Source: Escherichia coli (GTDB lineage: Bacteria; Pseudomonadota; Gammaproteobacteria; Enterobacterales; Enterobacteriaceae). From it: a DNA stretch of 37,729 nt. Location of the stretch: NCBI RefSeq assembly GCF_003334405.1, contig NZ_QOWM01000026.1, one strand, 5' to 3'. Of the stretch, positions 5,014 to 13,647 are shown one piece after another. The notes under the pieces are model-generated. The model did no database searches. It saw nothing but the letters and a program-made list of their open reading frames with translations, and was not told where the DNA came from. The position numbers and the translations under genes were made by a program. Numbering within the stretch: the first letter of the stretch is position 1; the number at the start of each line of letters is the position of its first letter.

Positions 5014-7413
5014 ATGAAGCTAACCGATGCGGATAATGCCGCCGATGGCATTTTTTTCCCCGCCCTTGAGCAAAATATGATGGGTGCGGTGTTAATTAAC
5101 GAAAATGATGAAGTGATGTTTTTCAACCCCGCCGCAGAGAAGCTCTGGGGATACAAACGTGAAGAAGTCATTGGCAATAACATTGATATGCTGATTCCGC
5201 GGGATTTGCGTCCTGCGCATCCTGAATACATTCGTCACAACCGTGAAGGCGGTAAAGCGCGTGTTGAGGGGATGAGTCGGGAGCTGCAGCTGGAGAAAAA
5301 AGACGGCAGTAAAATCTGGACCCGTTTTGCGCTATCGAAAGTGAGCGCCGAGGGGAAAGTTTATTACCTGGCGCTGGTACGGGATGCCAGCGTAGAAATG
5401 GCGCAAAAAGAACAGACCCGACAATTGATTATTGCCGTTGACCATCTCGACCGACCGGTGATTGTCCTCGATCCGGAACGCCATATTGTGCAGTGCAATC
5501 GCGCATTTACCGAAATGTTTGGTTACTGCATTAGCGAAGCCAGCGGTATGCAGCCCGATACACTCCTGAACATTCCTGAATTCCCTGCCGATAACCGCAT
5601 TCGTTTACAACAGTTGCTATGGAAAACCGCCCGCGATCAGGACGAATTTCTGCTGTTGACGCGCACCGGTGAAAAAATCTGGATTAAAGCCTCTATCAGC
5701 CCGGTTTATGACGTGCTCGCGCATCTGCAGAACCTGGTAATGACTTTCTCGGATATCACCGAAGAACGGCAGATTCGCCAGCTTGAAGGCAATATTCTCG
5801 CCGCCATGTGCAGCAGCCCGCCATTTCATGAAATGGGGGAAATCATTTGTCGTAACATCGAATCTGTACTCAACGAATCGCATGTTTCGCTGTTCGCACT
5901 GCGCAACGGGATGCCGATACACTGGGCGTCATCTTCCCACGGTGCAGAAATTCAAAATGCGCAAAGCTGGTCAGCGACCATTCGTCAGCGTGATGGCGCG
6001 CCTGCGGGGATCCTGCAAATTAAAACCTCGTCAGGAGCAGAAACCAGCGCCTTTATCGAACGCGTGGCAGATATCAGCCAGCATATGGCCGCGCTGGCGC
6101 TGGAACAGGAAAAAAGCCGTCAGCATATTGAACAACTCATCCAATTTGATCCGATGACCGGTCTGCCAAATCGCAATAACCTGCACAATTACCTCGATGA
6201 CCTGGTCGACAAAGCCGTCTCTCCCGTGGTGTATCTCATCGGTGTTGACCATATTCAGGATGTGATTGATAGCCTTGGCTATGCGTGGGCCGATCAGGCA
6301 TTGCTGGAAGTGGTCAATCGCTTTCGTGAAAAACTCAAACCGGATCAGTATCTCTGTCGTATCGAAGGTACGCAGTTTGTCCTCGTGAGCCTCGAAAACG
6401 ACGTCAGTAACATTACCCAAATCGCCGATGAGCTACGGAATGTGGTCAGCAAGCCGATAATGATTGACGATAAACCCTTCCCGCTTACCTTGAGTATTGG
6501 CATCAGCTACGACCTGGGTAAAAACCGCGATTACTTGCTCTCCACTGCTCACAATGCAATGGATTATATTCGCAAGAATGGCGGTAACGGCTGGCAGTTC
6601 TTCAGCCCGGCGATGAACGAAATGGTAAAAGAGCGTTTGGTTTTAGGCGCAGCGCTGAAAGAAGCGATTAGCAATAACCAACTGAAACTGGTTTACCAGC
6701 CGCAAATCTTCGCAGAAACGGGTGAACTGTACGGCATCGAAGCCCTTGCTCGCTGGCACGATCCCCTGCATGGTCATGTGCCCCCTTCACGGTTTATTCC
6801 TCTCGCAGAAGAGATTGGTGAAATCGAAAATATTGGGCGCTGGGTCATCGCGGAAGCTTGCCGTCAGTTAGCAGAATGGCGTAGCCAGAATATTCATATC
6901 CCGGCGTTATCCGTGAACTTGTCGGCGCTGCACTTTCGCAGTAATCAACTGCCTAATCAGGTGTCTGATGCAATGCACGCCTGGGGTATTGACGGCCACC
7001 AGCTGACGGTAGAAATCACGGAAAGCATGATGATGGAACACGATACCGAAATCTTTAAGCGCATTCAGATCCTGCGTGATATGGGCGTGGGCTTATCGGT
7101 AGATGATTTTGGTACGGGCTTTTCCGGATTATCCCGCTTAGTCAGTCTTCCGGTAACGGAAATCAAAATTGACAAAAGTTTTGTCGATCGTTGTCTGACC
7201 GAAAAACGCATCCTTGCCTTACTTGAAGCCATTACCAGCATTGGGCAAAGCCTCAATTTAACCGTCGTGGCGGAAGGCGTCGAAACCAAAGAGCAATTTG
7301 AGATGCTACGCAAGATCCACTGTCGCGTTATTCAGGGATATTTCTTTTCCCGCCCCCTACCCGCCGAAGAAATTCCAGGCTGGATGAGCAGCGTGTTACC
7401 GCTGAAAATCTGA
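5014..7413 (+). CDS. dosP: heme-PAS oxygen-sensing c-di-GMP phosphodiesterase (PAS-PAS-GGDEF-EAL)
   Basis: ORF track 807 aa from ATG 4990; I place the start at ATG 5014 (MKLTDADNAADG..., 799 aa) because GAGG lies 5 nt upstream; EAL-domain motifs in C-terminal half. Confidence 0.9.
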   Translation: MKLTDADNAADGIFFPALEQNMMGAVLINENDEVMFFNPAAEKLWGYKREEVIGNNIDMLIPRDLRPAHPEYIRHNREGGKARVEGMSRELQLEKKDGSKIWTRFALSKVSAEGKVYYLALVRDASVEMAQKEQTRQLIIAVDHLDRPVIVLDPERHIVQCNRAFTEMFGYCISEASGMQPDTLLNIPEFPADNRIRLQQLLWKTARDQDEFLLLTRTGEKIWIKASISPVYDVLAHLQNLVMTFSDITEERQIRQLEGNILAAMCSSPPFHEMGEIICRNIESVLNESHVSLFALRNGMPIHWASSSHGAEIQNAQSWSATIRQRDGAPAGILQIKTSSGAETSAFIERVADISQHMAALALEQEKSRQHIEQLIQFDPMTGLPNRNNLHNYLDDLVDKAVSPVVYLIGVDHIQDVIDSLGYAWADQALLEVVNRFREKLKPDQYLCRIEGTQFVLVSLENDVSNITQIADELRNVVSKPIMIDDKPFPLTLSIGISYDLGKNRDYLLSTAHNAMDYIRKNGGNGWQFFSPAMNEMVKERLVLGAALKEAISNNQLKLVYQPQIFAETGELYGIEALARWHDPLHGHVPPSRFIPLAEEIGEIENIGRWVIAEACRQLAEWRSQNIHIPALSVNLSALHFRSNQLPNQVSDAMHAWGIDGHQLTVEITESMMMEHDTEIFKRIQILRDMGVGLSVDDFGTGFSGLSRLVSLPVTEIKIDKSFVDRCLTEKRILALLEAITSIGQSLNLTVVAEGVETKEQFEMLRKIHCRVIQGYFFSRPLPAEEIPGWMSSVLPLKI

Positions 7414-7425
7414 CAAATTCCTCTC

Positions 7426-7449
7426 GCCCGCACTCGCGGGTTTTCATTT
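7426..7449 (+). terminator. candidate terminator after dosP
   Basis: Short GC stem cccgc / gcggg (loop actc) followed by ttttcattt; 13 nt after dosP stop. Confidence 0.4.
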
Positions 7450-7522
7450 AACGTGACACTGTCACTTAAATACTGTGATTTCAGCTACGATTCCGGGAGA
7501 TTCCTTCCTTAACTTCCCCTCT

Positions 7523-7549
7523 TGCACCAAAACTGCACTACGCTGCACA
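7523..7549 (+). promoter_or_regulatory. three TGCAC repeats, candidate NtrC-type enhancer sites for ddp operon
   Basis: TGCACC (7523), TGCACT (7534), TGCACA (7544) about 65-90 bp upstream of the sigma54-like element; resembles NtrC half-sites (TGCACC...GGTGCA). Confidence 0.3.
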
Positions 7550-7610
7550 AATGTTGATCAAAAGTTAAAAAATATAACTTTAAGCCAGCATTCTGGCGCT
7601 TATCCCGGCA

Positions 7611-7626
7611 TGGCATGAGATCTGCA
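7611..7626 (+). promoter_or_regulatory. sigma54 (-24/-12) type promoter upstream of ddpX
   Basis: TGGCATgagatcTGCA: GG and GC dinucleotides at the exact consensus spacing (TGGCACG-N4-TTGC); about 45 bp upstream of ddpX ATG. Confidence 0.5.
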
Positions 7627-7670
7627 TAAGCGGAAAGCGCAGCAATTTTTGTCTTATACAGGAACCGTTT

Positions 7671-8252
7671 ATGTCGGATACCACCGAACTGGTTGATTTA
7701 GCCGTAATCTTCCCTGATCTGGAGATCGAATTGAAATACGCCTGCGCTGATAACATCACAGGTAAAGCTATTTATCAGCAAGCGCGTTGTCTGTTACACA
7801 AGGATGCGATTACCGCGCTGGCGAAAAGTATCAGCATCGCCCAGCTGTCAGGGTTACAACTGGTGATTTACGATGCGTATCGCCCACAACAAGCACAGGC
7901 GATGTTGTGGCAAGCCTGCCCAGACCCGCAATATGTTGTTGATGTGACGGTCGGTTCTAATCACAGCCGTGGCACGGCGATCGACCTGACGCTTCGTGAT
8001 GAGCACGGGAACATCCTCGATATGGGCGCAGGGTTCGATGAAATGCACGAGCGCTCCCATGCCTATCACCCTTCCGTCCCGCCCGCCGCTCAGCGCAATC
8101 GGCTGTTGCTGAATGCGATAATGACTGGTGGCGGTTTTGTCGGTATCTCCAGCGAATGGTGGCACTTCGAATTACCCCAGGCAGCGAGTTACCCTCTGCT
8201 CGCTGATCAATTCTCTTGTTTTATATCCCCTGGCACACAGCACGTCAGTTAA
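7671..8252 (+). CDS. ddpX: D-Ala-D-Ala dipeptidase (VanX homologue)
   Basis: ORF track 193 aa; recognised as DdpX; first gene of ddp operon. Confidence 0.93.
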   Translation: MSDTTELVDLAVIFPDLEIELKYACADNITGKAIYQQARCLLHKDAITALAKSISIAQLSGLQLVIYDAYRPQQAQAMLWQACPDPQYVVDVTVGSNHSRGTAIDLTLRDEHGNILDMGAGFDEMHERSHAYHPSVPPAAQRNRLLLNAIMTGGGFVGISSEWWHFELPQAASYPLLADQFSCFISPGTQHVS

Positions 8253-8265
8253 TCAGGAAACTGTC

Positions 8266-9816
8266 ATGAAGAGATCGATATCGTTTCGTCCCACATTGCT
8301 CGCGCTCGTCCTTGCCACAAATTTCCCGGTTGCGCACGCCGCCGTACCAAAAGATATGCTGGTGATTGGTAAGGCCGCCGATCCACAAACCCTCGACCCG
8401 GCGGTAACAATAGATAATAACGACTGGACAGTGACCTACCCGTCTTATCAGCGGCTGGTTCAGTACAAAACGGACGGTGATAAAGGCTCAACCGACGTTG
8501 AAGGCGATCTGGCAAGTAGCTGGAAAGCGTCTGACGATCAAAAAGAGTGGACGTTCACCCTGAAAGATAATGCTAAATTTGCCGATGGCACACCTGTCAC
8601 TGCCGAAGCAGTAAAACTTTCTTTTGAGCGGCTACTAAAAATCGGCCAGGGGCCAGCAGAAGCATTTCCCAAAGATTTAAAGATTGATGCTCCCGACGAA
8701 CATACGGTGAAGTTTACCCTTAGCCAACCATTCGCACCGTTCCTCTACACGCTGGCGAATGACGGTGCATCCATTATCAATCCGGCGGTCTTAAAGGAAC
8801 ATGCAGCGGATGATGCTCGCGGCTTCCTCGCGCAAAATACCGCCGGTTCCGGACCATTTATGCTGAAAAGCTGGCAAAAAGGTCAGCAATTAGTTCTGGT
8901 GCCAAATCCGCATTACCCAGGCAATAAACCGAACTTCAAACGGGTATCGGTAAAAATTATTGGTGAAAGTGCCTCCCGTCGCCTGCAGCTCTCCCGTGGC
9001 GACATTGACATTGCCGATGCGCTGCCGGTGGATCAACTCAACGCCCTGAAGCAGGAAAATAAAGTCAATGTGGCAGAGTATCCGTCACTGCGCGTTACCT
9101 ATCTGTATCTGAATAACAGCAAAGCGCCTCTTAATCAGGCGGATCTGCGTCGGGCCATTTCCTGGTCTACCGATTATCAGGGCATGGTTAACGGCATTCT
9201 GAGTGGTAACGGAAAACAGATGCGCGGCCCGATTCCGGAAGGCATGTGGGGCTACGATGCGACGGCAATGCAATACAACCATGACGAAACGAAAGCCAAA
9301 GCCGAATGGGATAAAGTGACGAGCAAACCCACCAGCCTGACGTTTCTCTACTCCGATAACGATCCGAACTGGGAGCCTATTGCTCTGGCGACACAATCCA
9401 GTCTCAACAAGCTGGGCATCATTGTGAAGCTGGAAAAGCTGGCGAACGCCACCATGCGCGACAGAGTGGGTAAAGGTGATTACGACATTGCGATTGGCAA
9501 CTGGAGTCCGGATTTTGCCGACCCGTATATGTTTATGAATTACTGGTTTGAGTCAGACAAAAAAGGTCTGCCGGGTAACCGCTCGTTCTATGAAAACAGT
9601 GAGGTCGATAAGTTACTGCGCAATGCGCTTGCGACCACCGACCAGACGCAGCGTACCCGGGACTACCAGCAGGCACAGAAAATCGTCATTGATGACGCTG
9701 CTTATGTGTACCTGTTCCAGAAAAACTACCAACTGGCGATGAACAAAGAGGTGAAAGGCTTTGTGTTCAATCCCATGCTGGAACAGGTCTTCAATATCAA
9801 TACCATGAGTAAATAA
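8266..9816 (+). CDS. ddpA: periplasmic D-Ala-D-Ala/dipeptide binding protein of ABC transporter
   Basis: ORF track gives 562 aa from 8128 overlapping ddpX; I use internal ATG 8266 (MKRSISFRPTLLALVLATNFPVAHA, a typical signal peptide), giving 516 aa. Confidence 0.9.
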   Translation: MKRSISFRPTLLALVLATNFPVAHAAVPKDMLVIGKAADPQTLDPAVTIDNNDWTVTYPSYQRLVQYKTDGDKGSTDVEGDLASSWKASDDQKEWTFTLKDNAKFADGTPVTAEAVKLSFERLLKIGQGPAEAFPKDLKIDAPDEHTVKFTLSQPFAPFLYTLANDGASIINPAVLKEHAADDARGFLAQNTAGSGPFMLKSWQKGQQLVLVPNPHYPGNKPNFKRVSVKIIGESASRRLQLSRGDIDIADALPVDQLNALKQENKVNVAEYPSLRVTYLYLNNSKAPLNQADLRRAISWSTDYQGMVNGILSGNGKQMRGPIPEGMWGYDATAMQYNHDETKAKAEWDKVTSKPTSLTFLYSDNDPNWEPIALATQSSLNKLGIIVKLEKLANATMRDRVGKGDYDIAIGNWSPDFADPYMFMNYWFESDKKGLPGNRSFYENSEVDKLLRNALATTDQTQRTRDYQQAQKIVIDDAAYVYLFQKNYQLAMNKEVKGFVFNPMLEQVFNINTMSK

Positions 9817-9817
9817 C

Positions 9818-10840
9818 GTGACCTTCTGGAGTATTTTACGCCAACGCTGCTGGGGGCTGGTGCTCGTGGTGGCGGGCGTCTGCGTGATTACGTTTATTAT
9901 CTCGCATCTGATCCCTGGTGATCCGGCGCGGTTACTGGCGGGTGACCGCGCCAGCGATGCTATCGTGGAAAATATTCGCCAGCAACTGGGACTGGACCAG
10001 CCACTGTATGTACAGTTTTACCGCTACGTCAGCGACCTGTTTCATGGTGACCTGGGAACATCCATTCGTACCGGGCGTCCGGTGCTGGAAGAGTTGCGTA
10101 TATTTTTCCCGGCGACGCTGGAGCTGGCTTTTGGTGCCCTGCTGCTGGCACTCCTGATTGGCATCCCGCTGGGCATACTCTCTGCAGTCTGGCGAAATCG
10201 CTGGCTGGATCATCTGGTGCGAATAATGGCCATTACCGGAATCTCCACACCTGCGTTCTGGCTTGGGCTGGGCGTCATTGTGCTGTTTTATGGTCATCTG
10301 CAAATTCTTCCCGGCGGCGGAAGGCTTGATGACTGGCTGGATCCACCAACGCACGTTACCGGCTTTTATCTGCTCGATGCGCTGCTTGAAGGCAACGGTG
10401 AAGTCTTCTTCAATGCGTTGCAACATCTCATCTTACCGGCATTAACGCTGGCGTTCGTTCACCTGGGAATTGTCGCTCGCCAGATCCGCTCAGCGATGCT
10501 GGAACAATTGAGTGAAGACTACATTCGTACCGCCCGGGCCAGCGGCTTGCCCGGCTGGTATATCGTTTTATGTTATGCGCTACCCAATGCGTTGATCCCA
10601 TCGATTACCGTATTGGGTTTGGCGCTGGGCGATTTGTTGTATGGCGCAGTGCTCACCGAAACCGTTTTTGCCTGGCCCGGAATGGGTGCATGGGTAGTAA
10701 CATCAATACAGGCGCTCGACTTCCCGGCAGTGATGGGCTTTGCCGTCGTGGTTTCATTTGCTTATGTGCTGGTCAACCTGGTGGTGGATTTGCTCTATTT
10801 GTGGATTGATCCGCGTATCGGACGTGGAGGTGGTGAATGA
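9818..10840 (+). CDS. ddpB: ABC transporter permease
   Basis: ORF track 340 aa; GTG start 2 nt after ddpA stop; DppB-like permease. Confidence 0.9.
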   Translation: MTFWSILRQRCWGLVLVVAGVCVITFIISHLIPGDPARLLAGDRASDAIVENIRQQLGLDQPLYVQFYRYVSDLFHGDLGTSIRTGRPVLEELRIFFPATLELAFGALLLALLIGIPLGILSAVWRNRWLDHLVRIMAITGISTPAFWLGLGVIVLFYGHLQILPGGGRLDDWLDPPTHVTGFYLLDALLEGNGEVFFNALQHLILPALTLAFVHLGIVARQIRSAMLEQLSEDYIRTARASGLPGWYIVLCYALPNALIPSITVLGLALGDLLYGAVLTETVFAWPGMGAWVVTSIQALDFPAVMGFAVVVSFAYVLVNLVVDLLYLWIDPRIGRGGGE

Positions 10841-11733
10841 TGCTAAGCGAGGAAACGTCCGCCGTACGCCCACAAAAACAAACGCGATTTAACGGTGCAA
10901 AACTGGTATGGATGCTGAAAGGCAGTCCGCTCACCGTGACCAGCGCAGTCATCATTGTATTAATGCTATTGATGATGATTTTTTCACCGTGGCTGGCGAC
11001 GCATGATCCCAACGCCATTGATTTAACCGCCCGCCTTTTGCCGCCTTCTGCGGCGCACTGGTTTGGCACCGATGAAGTGGGACGCGATCTGTTTAGCCGC
11101 GTACTGGTCGGCAGTCAGCAATCAATTCTCGCCGGATTAGTCGTGGTTGCCATTGCGGGTATGATTGGTTCGCTACTCGGATGTCTATCCGGTGTGCTTG
11201 GTGGACGCGCAGACGCCATCATCATGCGCATCATGGACATTATGCTGTCGATTCCTTCGTTGGTACTGACAATGGCACTGGCTGCCGCTCTCGGGCCGAG
11301 TTTGTTTAACGCCATGCTGGCTATTGCTATTGTGCGAATTCCCTTTTATGTGCGCCTGGCGCGGGGGCAAGCATTAGTTGTACGCCAGTATACCTATGTT
11401 CAGGCGGCGAAAACCTTTGGCGCGTCTCGTTGGCATCTGATCAACTGGCATATTTTACGTAACTCCCTACCGCCGCTGATCGTGCAGGCATCGCTGGATA
11501 TCGGTAGCGCGATTTTAATGGCCGCCACGTTGGGATTTATTGGCCTGGGTGCTCAACAACCGAGTGCTGAATGGGGCGCGATGGTAGCAAATGGTCGCAA
11601 CTATGTACTCGATCAGTGGTGGTATTGCGCATTTCCGGGGGCAGCGATTTTGCTTACCGCCGTCGGGTTTAATCTCTTTGGTGATGGTATTCGCGATCTG
11701 CTTGACCCGAAAGCAGGAGGAAAGCAGTCATGA
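10837..11733 (+). CDS. ddpC: ABC transporter permease
   Basis: ORF track 298 aa; ATG overlaps ddpB stop (ATGA); DppC-like permease. Confidence 0.9.
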   Translation: MMLSEETSAVRPQKQTRFNGAKLVWMLKGSPLTVTSAVIIVLMLLMMIFSPWLATHDPNAIDLTARLLPPSAAHWFGTDEVGRDLFSRVLVGSQQSILAGLVVVAIAGMIGSLLGCLSGVLGGRADAIIMRIMDIMLSIPSLVLTMALAAALGPSLFNAMLAIAIVRIPFYVRLARGQALVVRQYTYVQAAKTFGASRWHLINWHILRNSLPPLIVQASLDIGSAILMAATLGFIGLGAQQPSAEWGAMVANGRNYVLDQWWYCAFPGAAILLTAVGFNLFGDGIRDLLDPKAGGKQS

Positions 11734-12716
11734 CCCAACCCGTTCTGGACATTCAACAACTGCATTTGAGTTTCCCCGGTTTTAACGGTGATGTTCACGC
11801 GCTCAACAATGTGTCCTTGCAGATTAACCGCGGTGAAATTGTCGGTCTGGTGGGAGAATCCGGCTCAGGTAAATCAGTCACCGCAATGCTGATTATGCGT
11901 CTGCTACCGACGGGCAGTTATTGCGTACATCGGGGGCAGATTTCCCTGCTGGGAGAAGATGTTCTTAACGCGCGGGAAAAACAGCTTCGTCAGTGGCGCG
12001 GCGCACGAGTGGCGATGATCTTTCAGGAACCGATGACCGCCCTCAATCCGACACGTCGAATAGGTCTTCAGATGATGGACGTGATCCGCCATCATCAACC
12101 AATAAGTCGTCGGGAAGCCAGAGCTAAAGCGATTGACCTGCTGGAAGAGATGCAAATCCCGGATGCCGTGGAAGTTATGTCGCGCTATCCGTTTGAGCTT
12201 TCAGGTGGTATGCGCCAGCGGGTAATGATTGCGCTGGCATTCTCCTGCGAGCCGCAATTGATTATTGCCGACGAACCGACTACGGCGCTGGACGTCACGG
12301 TGCAGTTGCAGGTACTGCGTTTGCTTAAACATAAAGCCCGCGCCAGTGGAACTGCGGTTCTGTTCATCAGCCATGATATGGCCGTGGTGTCGCAACTGTG
12401 CGATAGCGTTTACGTGATGTATGCCGGAAGCGTAATTGAAAGCGGCGTGACGGCAGACGTTATCCATCATCCCCGGCATCCGTATACCATTGGTTTGCTG
12501 CAATGCGCACCAGAACATGGAGTACCACGCCAGCTATTACCCGCCATTCCAGGGACGGTACCAAACCTCACCCATTTGCCTGACGGCTGCGCTTTTCGCG
12601 ATCGTTGCTATGCGGCAGGTGCACAGTGTGAAAACGTCCCGGCGCTGACAGCGTGTGGTGACAACAACCAGCGCTGTGCCTGTTGGTATCCGCAGCAGGA
12701 GGTTATAAGTGTCTGA
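11730..12716 (+). CDS. ddpD: ABC transporter ATP-binding protein
   Basis: ORF track 328 aa; Walker A GESGSGKS; AGGAGG upstream of ATG; start overlaps ddpC stop. Confidence 0.92.
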   Translation: MTQPVLDIQQLHLSFPGFNGDVHALNNVSLQINRGEIVGLVGESGSGKSVTAMLIMRLLPTGSYCVHRGQISLLGEDVLNAREKQLRQWRGARVAMIFQEPMTALNPTRRIGLQMMDVIRHHQPISRREARAKAIDLLEEMQIPDAVEVMSRYPFELSGGMRQRVMIALAFSCEPQLIIADEPTTALDVTVQLQVLRLLKHKARASGTAVLFISHDMAVVSQLCDSVYVMYAGSVIESGVTADVIHHPRHPYTIGLLQCAPEHGVPRQLLPAIPGTVPNLTHLPDGCAFRDRCYAAGAQCENVPALTACGDNNQRCACWYPQQEVISV

Positions 12717-13635
12717 CACGTTATTAACGTTACGCGACGTCCATATCAATTTCCCGGCCCGTAAAAACTGGCTTGGTAAAACTACGGAACATGTTCATGC
12801 CATTAATGGTATTGATTTACAGATCCGCCGTGGTGAAACCTTAGGGATCGTCGGCGAGTCAGGCTGCGGCAAAAGCACCCTCGCACAGCTTTTAATGGGT
12901 ATGCTGCAACCGAGCCACGGGCAGTACATCCGTTCTGGCTCACAACGCATTATGCAGATGGTGTTTCAGGACCCGCTCTCTTCGCTTAATCCGCGCTTAC
13001 CGGTGTGGCGCATCATCACAGAACCGCTCTGGATAGCTAAGCGTAGTAGTGAACAACAGCGGCGAGCGTTGGCAGAGGAGTTGGCTGTGCAGGTGGGTAT
13101 TCGTCCGGAGTATCTCGACCGCCTGCCTCATGCGTTCTCCGGCGGGCAGCGGCAACGTATCGCCATTGCCAGAGCACTCTCTTCGCAGCCTGACGTGATT
13201 GTGCTTGATGAGCCAACCTCTGCGCTGGATATCTCCGTTCAGGCGCAGATCCTCAATTTACTGGTAACGCTACAGGAAAATCACGGGCTGACCTATGTGC
13301 TGATTTCACACAATGTCTCGGTGATACGTCATATGAGCGATCGGGTGGCGGTGATGTATCTCGGGCAGATTGTAGAACTGGGCGACGCGCAGCAGGTGCT
13401 GACGGCACCTGCACATCCATACACCCGATTATTGCTGGATTCCCTCCCCGCCATTGATAAACCGCTGGAGGAAGAATGGGCATTACGTAAAACGGATCTG
13501 CCGGGAAACCGCACGTTGCCGCAAGGCTGTTTTTTCTACGAACGTTGCCCGCTGGCAACCCACGGATGTGAAGTCCGGCAATCATTAGCAATAAGGGAGG
13601 ACGGACGTGAGCTCCGGTGCTGGCGGGCGCTGTAG
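12709..13635 (+). CDS. ddpF: ABC transporter ATP-binding protein
   Basis: ORF track 308 aa; GTG start with AGGAGG upstream; Walker A GESGCGKS; overlaps ddpD end. Confidence 0.92.
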   Translation: MSDTLLTLRDVHINFPARKNWLGKTTEHVHAINGIDLQIRRGETLGIVGESGCGKSTLAQLLMGMLQPSHGQYIRSGSQRIMQMVFQDPLSSLNPRLPVWRIITEPLWIAKRSSEQQRRALAEELAVQVGIRPEYLDRLPHAFSGGQRQRIAIARALSSQPDVIVLDEPTSALDISVQAQILNLLVTLQENHGLTYVLISHNVSVIRHMSDRVAVMYLGQIVELGDAQQVLTAPAHPYTRLLLDSLPAIDKPLEEEWALRKTDLPGNRTLPQGCFFYERCPLATHGCEVRQSLAIREDGRELRCWRAL

Positions 13636-13647
13636 AGATGCTAACAA

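Follow-up and report, generated by a model that had tools for sequence, protein, structure and literature searches.

Genes and features of the ddp locus

The window analyzed in this work is a stretch of 37,729 nt of Escherichia coli chromosomal DNA (contig NZ_QOWM01000026.1 of assembly GCF_003334405.1). Comparison of its positions 7380-7700 with complete E. coli chromosomes revealed 100% identity to the dosP-ddpX intergenic DNA of many of them. According to the RefSeq annotation of this identical DNA, the genes follow each other in the order gadC, digH, dosC, dosP, ddpX, ddpA, ddpB, ddpC, ddpD, ddpF, osmC, bdm, sra and maeA. The osmC gene, next after ddpF, is carried by the reverse strand, and ddpA to ddpF encode a dipeptide ABC importer composed of a binding protein, two permeases and two ATPases. 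The coordinates of these five genes were carried over from an identical locus annotated in RefSeq (L001; offset of -621 from the window). In Escherichia, the first gene of the operon is ddpX. The dosP ORF ends at 7413 and the intergenic region between dosP and ddpX is 257 nt long. The features of this region and of the operon are the following:

7423-7450, + strand: intrinsic terminator of dosP, hairpin GCCCGC-ACTC-GCGGGT followed by TTTCATTT (terminator scan)
7474-7490, + strand: TGTGA-N6-CTACGA, candidate pair of CRP half-sites (7/10 of TGTGA-N6-TCACA; centre at about -155)
7523-7539, + strand: proposed NtrC site A, TGCACCAAAACTGCACT (9/14 to TGCACCAnnnTGGTGCA; centre at -106 from the predicted start)
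7544-7560, + strand: proposed NtrC site B, TGCACAAATGTTGATCA (10/14, top match of the intergenic region; centre at -85)
7561-7609, + strand: spacer between enhancer and promoter (alignment)
7610-7626, + strand: sigma-54 promoter ddpXp, ATGGCATGAGATCTGCA (pattern, weight matrix and identity with the ChIP-seq site OS16)
7637-7638, + strand: predicted transcription start (12 nt past the -12 C, the rule used in PMC4591121)
7671-8252, + strand: ddpX, D-alanyl-D-alanine dipeptidase, 193 aa (ORF list; RefSeq annotation of identical DNA)
8266-13635, + strand: ddpA, ddpB, ddpC, ddpD and ddpF, co-transcribed with ddpX (ORF list; RefSeq annotation)

The dosP terminator, whose strength is modest, marks the limit between the dosCP transcript and the ddp control region. 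Just 3′ of it lies a near-perfect palindrome, GTGACACTGTCAC (7453-7465, + strand), which is present in Escherichia and is not evident in Citrobacter or Enterobacter. No Rfam family was found within 7350-7750.

The promoter segment was found in 4275 of the 5426 complete E. coli genomes and is absent from the 1151 others (about 21%). In strain MS10711, the entire ddp module and its control region have given way, between dosP and osmC, to an unrelated sequence of about 75 nt (L082, 6110-6179), the missing stretch corresponding to positions ~7490-13646 of the window. A deletion is suggested by the position of the left break, 3′ of the TGTGA motif and within the conserved control region.

A sigma-54 promoter directly upstream of ddpX

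An earlier note, made from the sequence alone, had proposed that TGGCATGAGATCTGCA (7611-7626, + strand) has the spacing of a sigma-54 promoter. This is borne out: the GG (7612-7613) and the GC (7624-7625) are 12 nt apart, and the element reads TGGCAT-N5-CTGCA, compared to TGGCAC-N5-TTGCW for the consensus. The pattern TGGCAYN5YTGCW has two matches in the window compared to 0.15 expected. The weight-matrix scoring that had been proposed as a check was done with a matrix based on the 135 sigma-54 ChIP-seq sites tabulated in PMC4591121 minus the two that lie within the window (133 sites). With this matrix, from which it was left out, the ddpX site reaches 14.8 bits, the top match on either strand of the window, and exceeds the median of the ChIP-confirmed sigma-54 sites (14.4 bits). 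Such a score is not rare by itself, random sequence of equal size and dinucleotide make-up being expected to contain about 0.89 matches of 14.5 bits or more, and its weight therefore rests on the position, orientation and conservation of the site. Directly upstream of ddpX, in the 257-nt intergenic region and in the right orientation, the chance expectation is about 0.002. Furthermore, the TGGCA and TGCAT cores show no variation among 35 distinct Escherichia, Citrobacter and Enterobacter-type sequences.

By the rule applied in PMC4591121, transcription would start 19 nt past the centre of the motif, 34 nt before ddpX. In the window, the predicted leader thus extends over 34 nt, from 7637 to the ddpX ATG at 7671, and includes a Shine-Dalgarno sequence, AGGA, at 7660-7663. 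The EcoCyc status of this start is 'P' (predicted) in Table 1 of PMC4591121, and our literature search found no mapped 5′ end of ddpX mRNA.

Two side observations concern the same motifs. A second strong sigma-54 motif of the window, CTGGCACTACCGTTGCA (32726-32742, + strand, 14.5 bits), lies inside a gene and is the published intragenic ChIP-seq site IS19 in narY (PMC4591121, Table 2). The control region also carries two GATC (Dam) sites, one in the right half of proposed site B (7557-7560), the other in the sigma-54 promoter spacer (7618-7621); the former is missing in E. cloacae and E. hormaechei, and both are probably incidental.

The element ATGGCATGAGATCTGCA is the sigma-54 ChIP-seq site OS16, whose motif centre is located at 1561153 (U00096.2) on the minus strand, with ddpX downstream (PMC4591121). 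The same ddpX promoter sequence is given in PMC2831329. The position of OS16 provides the genome-to-window mapping g = 1561100 + (7671 - w). Under nitrogen starvation, NtrC ChIP-seq detected a peak at 1561101-1561181 that was assigned to ddpXABCDF (PMC4066584), and a gSELEX peak was reported at 1,561,132 for the ddpX region (PMC8743547). In gel shifts, a probe corresponding to 7341-7748 of the window was bound by NtrC, by the RpoN holoenzyme and by both as a ternary complex, and RT-qPCR after nitrogen depletion showed a 104.5-fold increase of ddpX mRNA and a 2.2-fold increase of ddpF mRNA (PMC8743547). In microarray experiments, ddpX was down 2.1-fold in an rpoN deletion and up 2.7-fold after sigma-54 induction (PMC2831329). 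The sigma-54 promoters recorded in RegulonDB include that of ddpX (PMC3118216).

Control of the ddp operon by a sigma-54 promoter, NtrC and nitrogen limitation, which the earlier note had suggested, is thus backed by published data (PMC4591121, PMC4066584, PMC8743547 and PMC2831329), and the comparison of 80 species loci presented below agrees with it. Given the published sigma-54 and NtrC occupancy, in vitro binding and induction, the promoter was already known: it is an ordinary, catalogued sigma-54/NtrC promoter and a curated member of the Ntr regulon. Its confirmation adds nothing new. One modest gain of this work is a sequence-level proposal of the place where NtrC binds, of two degenerate sites at this place and of the incidental nature of the middle TGCAC.

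Within the operon, a gSELEX study of RpoD gives an 'internal promoter' between ddpA and ddpB, at about 9800-10000 of the window (PMC3946193). It may bear on the lower induction of ddpF (2.2-fold) than of ddpX (104.5-fold).

A proposed NtrC element upstream of the promoter

Three TGCAC motifs, all on the + strand (7523-7527, 7534-7538 and 7544-7548), lie 63-88 nt upstream of the sigma-54 element, as previously noticed. This motif is under-represented in the window (61 matches compared to 101 expected), and only 0.038 groups of three same-strand copies inside 30 nt are expected per window. The three copies had been considered as NtrC enhancer sites. An upstream NtrC element is supported by our analysis, but not its division into three equivalent sites, the best matches to the NtrC consensus TGCACCAnnnTGGTGCA (PMC8743547) being two 17-mers (9/14 and 10/14). 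No canonical TGCACCAnnnTGGTGCA palindrome was found upstream of ddpX in the intergenic region. Proposed site A contains the first and second TGCAC copies; its left half is perfect (TGCACCA), its right half is degenerate, and its TGCACCAAAA is invariant in the 35 sequences. Proposed site B, which contains the third copy, has a good left half and a poor right half and is nearly invariant across genera. With centres at -106 and -85, the two proposed sites lie in the zone of about 80-150 nt upstream of the start where NtrC enhancers are expected, and the 21 bp between them (two helical turns) would put them on one helical face.

Once mapped on the window, the NtrC ChIP-seq peak covers 7590-7670, over the promoter and not over 7523-7560. 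The NtrC peak windows of glnH, rutA and astC also include the sigma-54 motif centre, and the motif centre of yeaG lies one base beyond the edge of the peak window (tables of PMC4066584 and PMC4591121). Since NtrC peaks are found over sigma-54 motifs elsewhere too, this dataset does not resolve the position of the sites. No exact NtrC sites of ddpX were found in our literature search, and a full-text search for the enhancer sequence gave no match. Zimmer et al. in 2000 and Reitzer and Schneider in 2001 probably list the NtrC sites of ddp. The supplement of PMC8743547 gives the probe primers only, with no NtrC box called for ddpX.

Between the enhancer and the promoter, the spacer includes a conserved GTTAA (7564-7568), and the segment 7549-7583, whose A+T content is about 86%, extends back into the right half of site B. 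Measured from the first base of site B, the sigma-54 motif lies 66 nt away in Escherichia and 75-78 nt (mostly 77) away in the other genera, the Escherichia spacer being 10-11 bp shorter than those of Citrobacter and Enterobacter. The two classes of spacer length are about one turn of the helix apart, as would be expected if looping were constrained by the face of the helix, and the spacer probably acts as a bend or loop segment. A search of 7549-7610 for the IHF consensus WATCAANNNNTTR with at most one mismatch found no match and only an A+T-rich stretch.

Comparison across Enterobacterales

The scan for DdpX, done on one genome per species, yielded 80 loci, which are phylogenetically related and not independent. 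At the head of the ddp-like operon, 67 of these 80 loci have a sigma-54 site scoring 12.5 bits or more. Upstream of this promoter, 53 of the 67 have a match of 10/14 or better to the NtrC consensus, compared to 0.063 expected per locus (the zone scored being the 130 nt upstream of the promoter, with site centres at about -50 to -180 from the predicted start).

In the Escherichia loci, the sigma-54 promoter is located directly before ddpX. By contrast, ddpX comes second in the operons of Citrobacter, Enterobacter, Serratia, Pantoea, Raoultella, Brenneria and others, after a gene encoding a protein of ~289 aa, and a strong sigma-54 site (e.g., ATGGCACGCGTCCTGCA; 13-17 bits) lies ~70 nt upstream of this first gene. 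The encoded protein is an RpiR/MurR-type regulator with HTH_6 and SIS domains, whose top NCBIfam match, SapR, is below the curated cutoff. This RpiR-family gene is found between the promoter and ddpX in locus L004 (2117-2986) and at the equivalent place in most of the loci L004-L081, whereas Escherichia is devoid of it. Furthermore, the leader found 3′ of the -12 element in E. coli is unrelated to that of Citrobacter and Enterobacter, and homology is found again only at ACAGGAACCGT, the ribosome-binding region immediately upstream of ddpX. This organization fits a loss of the RpiR-family gene in Escherichia, which would have put the ancestral operon promoter directly before ddpX. Taken as a whole, the comparison provides evidence that sigma-54/NtrC control of D-Ala-D-Ala scavenging is the ancestral state across Enterobacterales.

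The block TGCACCAAAAsTGmACTACGCTGCACAAATGTTGATCAnnnGTTAA hardly varies among the 35 distinct sequences mentioned above (Escherichia, Citrobacter and Enterobacter-type), and its flanks have diverged; besides this enhancer block, TGGCA and TGCAT are the main invariant runs near the promoter. Beyond these genera, the orthologues of site A are TGCACCAAAACGGATCG in Brenneria (10/14) and TGCACCAACATGGATCG in Lonsdalea (11/14), and each of them is paired with a second 17-mer located 21 bp away (TGCACGATTTTTGCGCT and TGCACAAATTTTGCGCT, respectively). Those of site B are TGCCCAAATGTTGTGCA in Serratia (11/14, a clear orthologue) and TGCACAAATGTTGTGCG in Huaxiibacter (11/14). Raoultella and Pantoea carry palindromes that match the NtrC consensus at 12/14 positions.

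Possible other regulatory inputs and alternative readings

Upstream of the proposed NtrC element, TGTGATTTCAGCTACG (7474-7489) matches the CRP consensus at 7/10 positions, compared to 8/10 for its Enterobacter counterpart. TGTGA is found 49-51 nt upstream of site A in 32 of the 35 distinct sequences, and the N6 that follows varies freely. It has been reported that ddpX is down in a cya deletion (PMC4512719) and that the whole ddp operon is controlled by Crp (PMC8085971); no report of CRP binding at ddpX was found in our literature search. Because TGTGATGCA forms the right half of an NtrC palindrome in Pantoea, the TGTGA motif was also considered as a third NtrC half-site, a reading that was dropped for E. 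coli since TGTGATT fits the half-site poorly by eye. In EHEC, ddpX is the gene most strongly up-regulated by a pdhR deletion (>205-fold), together with ddpA, argT and yhdXY (PMC11508082). A direct role of PdhR at ddpX was not retained: the effect looks indirect because argT and yhdXY, which are other Ntr genes, rise with ddpX.

That all these motifs are chance matches devoid of any regulatory role is extremely improbable. Such a reading could invoke the ~0.9 sigma-54 matrix matches of at least 14.5 bits expected per random window and the 95 matches of 9-10/14 to the NtrC consensus present in the window, but the position, the orientation and the cross-genus invariance of the motifs oppose it, as does their published binding in vivo and in vitro, and it conflicts with the ChIP-seq and expression data already published. 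Another reading maintains NtrC as the activator and considers the three TGCAC copies as equivalent direct repeats, spaced by 11 and 10 bp on one helical face, each of them nucleating an NtrC dimer in a non-palindromic array. The rarity of such a group of same-strand copies speaks in its favor, as does the presence of all three in Escherichia and in C. amalonaticus-type sequences. Moreover, three NtrC dimers would make one hexamer. It nevertheless seems unlikely: most Citrobacter and Enterobacter have TGAAC in place of the middle copy whereas the outer two do not vary, the more distant Brenneria and Lonsdalea carry two 17-mers 21 bp apart, and the near-palindromic 17-mers of Serratia, Raoultella and Pantoea (11-12/14) argue for dimer sites. 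On the basis of these orthologues (TGAAC as middle copy, paired 17-mers and better palindromes elsewhere), the E. coli element most likely consists of two degenerate 17-bp NtrC sites, the middle TGCAC being the weak right half of site A.

The earlier note had also mentioned that the operon is reported as RpoS-dependent and had considered that a second promoter may be present. RpoS dependence of ddp was reportedly described by Lessard et al. in 1998. This part of the claim stands: in stationary-phase EDL933, expression is RpoS-dependent by 39-fold for ddpX and 31-fold for ddpA (PMC2907692). The second promoter did not emerge from our scans. No match to a sigma-70 promoter (-10 hexamer TATAAT or TATACT and -35 hexamer with a spacing of 16-18 bp) was found in 7350-7750, and the -10 candidates obtained with less stringent settings were all weak and poorly matched at -35 (e.g., AATACT at 7469 and TATAAC at 7573), none of them being a convincing sigma-70 or sigma-S candidate in the intergenic region. 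A sigma-S or sigma-70 promoter located in this region would account for the RpoS-dependent stationary-phase expression, and the two or three holoenzyme bands seen in gel shifts with the ddpX probe (PMC8743547) would be in keeping with it. In view of the scans, we nevertheless regard it as rather unlikely. The RpoS effect could be indirect, or could result from read-through across the modest terminator (7423-7450) by the dosCP transcript, which is sigma-S dependent. The 46-bp block could also, although this is quite unlikely, be read by NtrC together with a second regulator, such as the RpiR-family protein that other genera encode at the head of the operon, or CRP acting with the TGTGA at 7474. 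The conservation of the block is denser than two NtrC dimers would call for, so that another factor may share it; it is invariant even where the NtrC consensus is free (nnn, ACGC linker and GTTAA). An RpiR/MurR-type gene lies between the promoter and ddpX in most Enterobacterales, and ddp expression depends on Crp/cAMP and on RpoS and increases in the pdhR deletion. Against this, the block is unchanged in Escherichia despite the missing RpiR-family gene, the pdhR effect looks indirect, and CRP is represented by a match of 7-8/10 only, with no binding report found in our literature search. It is likewise quite unlikely that the direct-repeat TGCAC-type block and the TGTGA-N6-ACG found 50 nt upstream constitute a composite element where CRP-cAMP or another factor would co-activate, the circuit being simplified in Escherichia by the deletion of the operon's own RpiR-family regulator gene. 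If this were the case, nitrogen would not be the sole signal read at the block, and the published Crp and RpoS dependence would be explained without a second promoter. The conserved CRP-like motif and the Escherichia-specific absence of the RpiR-family gene provide leads on carbon and stationary-phase input.

Proposed mechanism and comparison with known systems

We estimate at about 0.9 the probability that the element is ddpXp, the NtrC-activated, sigma-54-dependent promoter of E. coli ddpXABCDF. In the mechanism that we propose, the sigma-54 holoenzyme would occupy ATGGCATGAGATCTGCA (7610-7626) in a closed complex. When nitrogen is limiting, phosphorylated NtrC would bind the conserved block 7523-7560, most likely at the degenerate dimer sites A and B, which have strong TGCAC(C/A)A left halves and would lie on the same face of the helix. 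NtrC would then oligomerise, contact the polymerase by looping the A+T-rich spacer of ~50 bp and drive promoter opening at the expense of ATP. Transcription would proceed from near 7637 through ddpX and the genes of the Ddp ABC importer, and imported D-Ala-D-Ala would be split to D-alanine, a scavenged nitrogen source. In this scheme, we infer from the sequence comparisons the exact NtrC sites, their number (two), the looping geometry and the start point.

The element is identical to ddpXp of E. coli K-12 (RegulonDB/EcoCyc, OS16), with the same 34 nt to ddpX and the same operon. Like ddpXp, the promoters yeaGp, argTp, astCp, rutAp and glnHp2 are NtrC ChIP-seq targets with sigma-54 sites. The first 11 nt of the yeaG motif, ATGGCATGAGAGTTGCT, are the same as those of ddpX (7610-7620), yeaG being another NtrC target, and the sigma-54 sites of argT and astC have a C at -14 (CTGCA), as in ddpX. 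In glnAp2, the model NtrC/sigma-54 promoter of E. coli, -24/-12 elements are preceded by a pair of NtrC dimer sites that share a helical face, and activation proceeds by looping and ATP-driven opening. The organization proposed for ddpXp is similar in all these respects. However, the strong sites of glnAp2 are good TGCACCAnnnTGGTGCA palindromes located at about -140 and -108, 32 bp apart, whereas those proposed at ddp match only 9-10/14 positions, are closer to the start (-106 and -85) and are 21 bp apart. Whereas glnHp2 relies on IHF, ddp is devoid of IHF consensus between the enhancer and the promoter. Finally, the ddp-like operons of other Enterobacterales are headed, like that of E. coli, by an orthologous sigma-54 site with NtrC-like sites, and those of Citrobacter and Enterobacter have the same enhancer block. 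They differ from the E. coli operon in that their promoter drives the RpiR-family gene first and ddpX second, in that their spacer is 10-11 bp longer, and in that several of them carry palindromes of 11-12/14.
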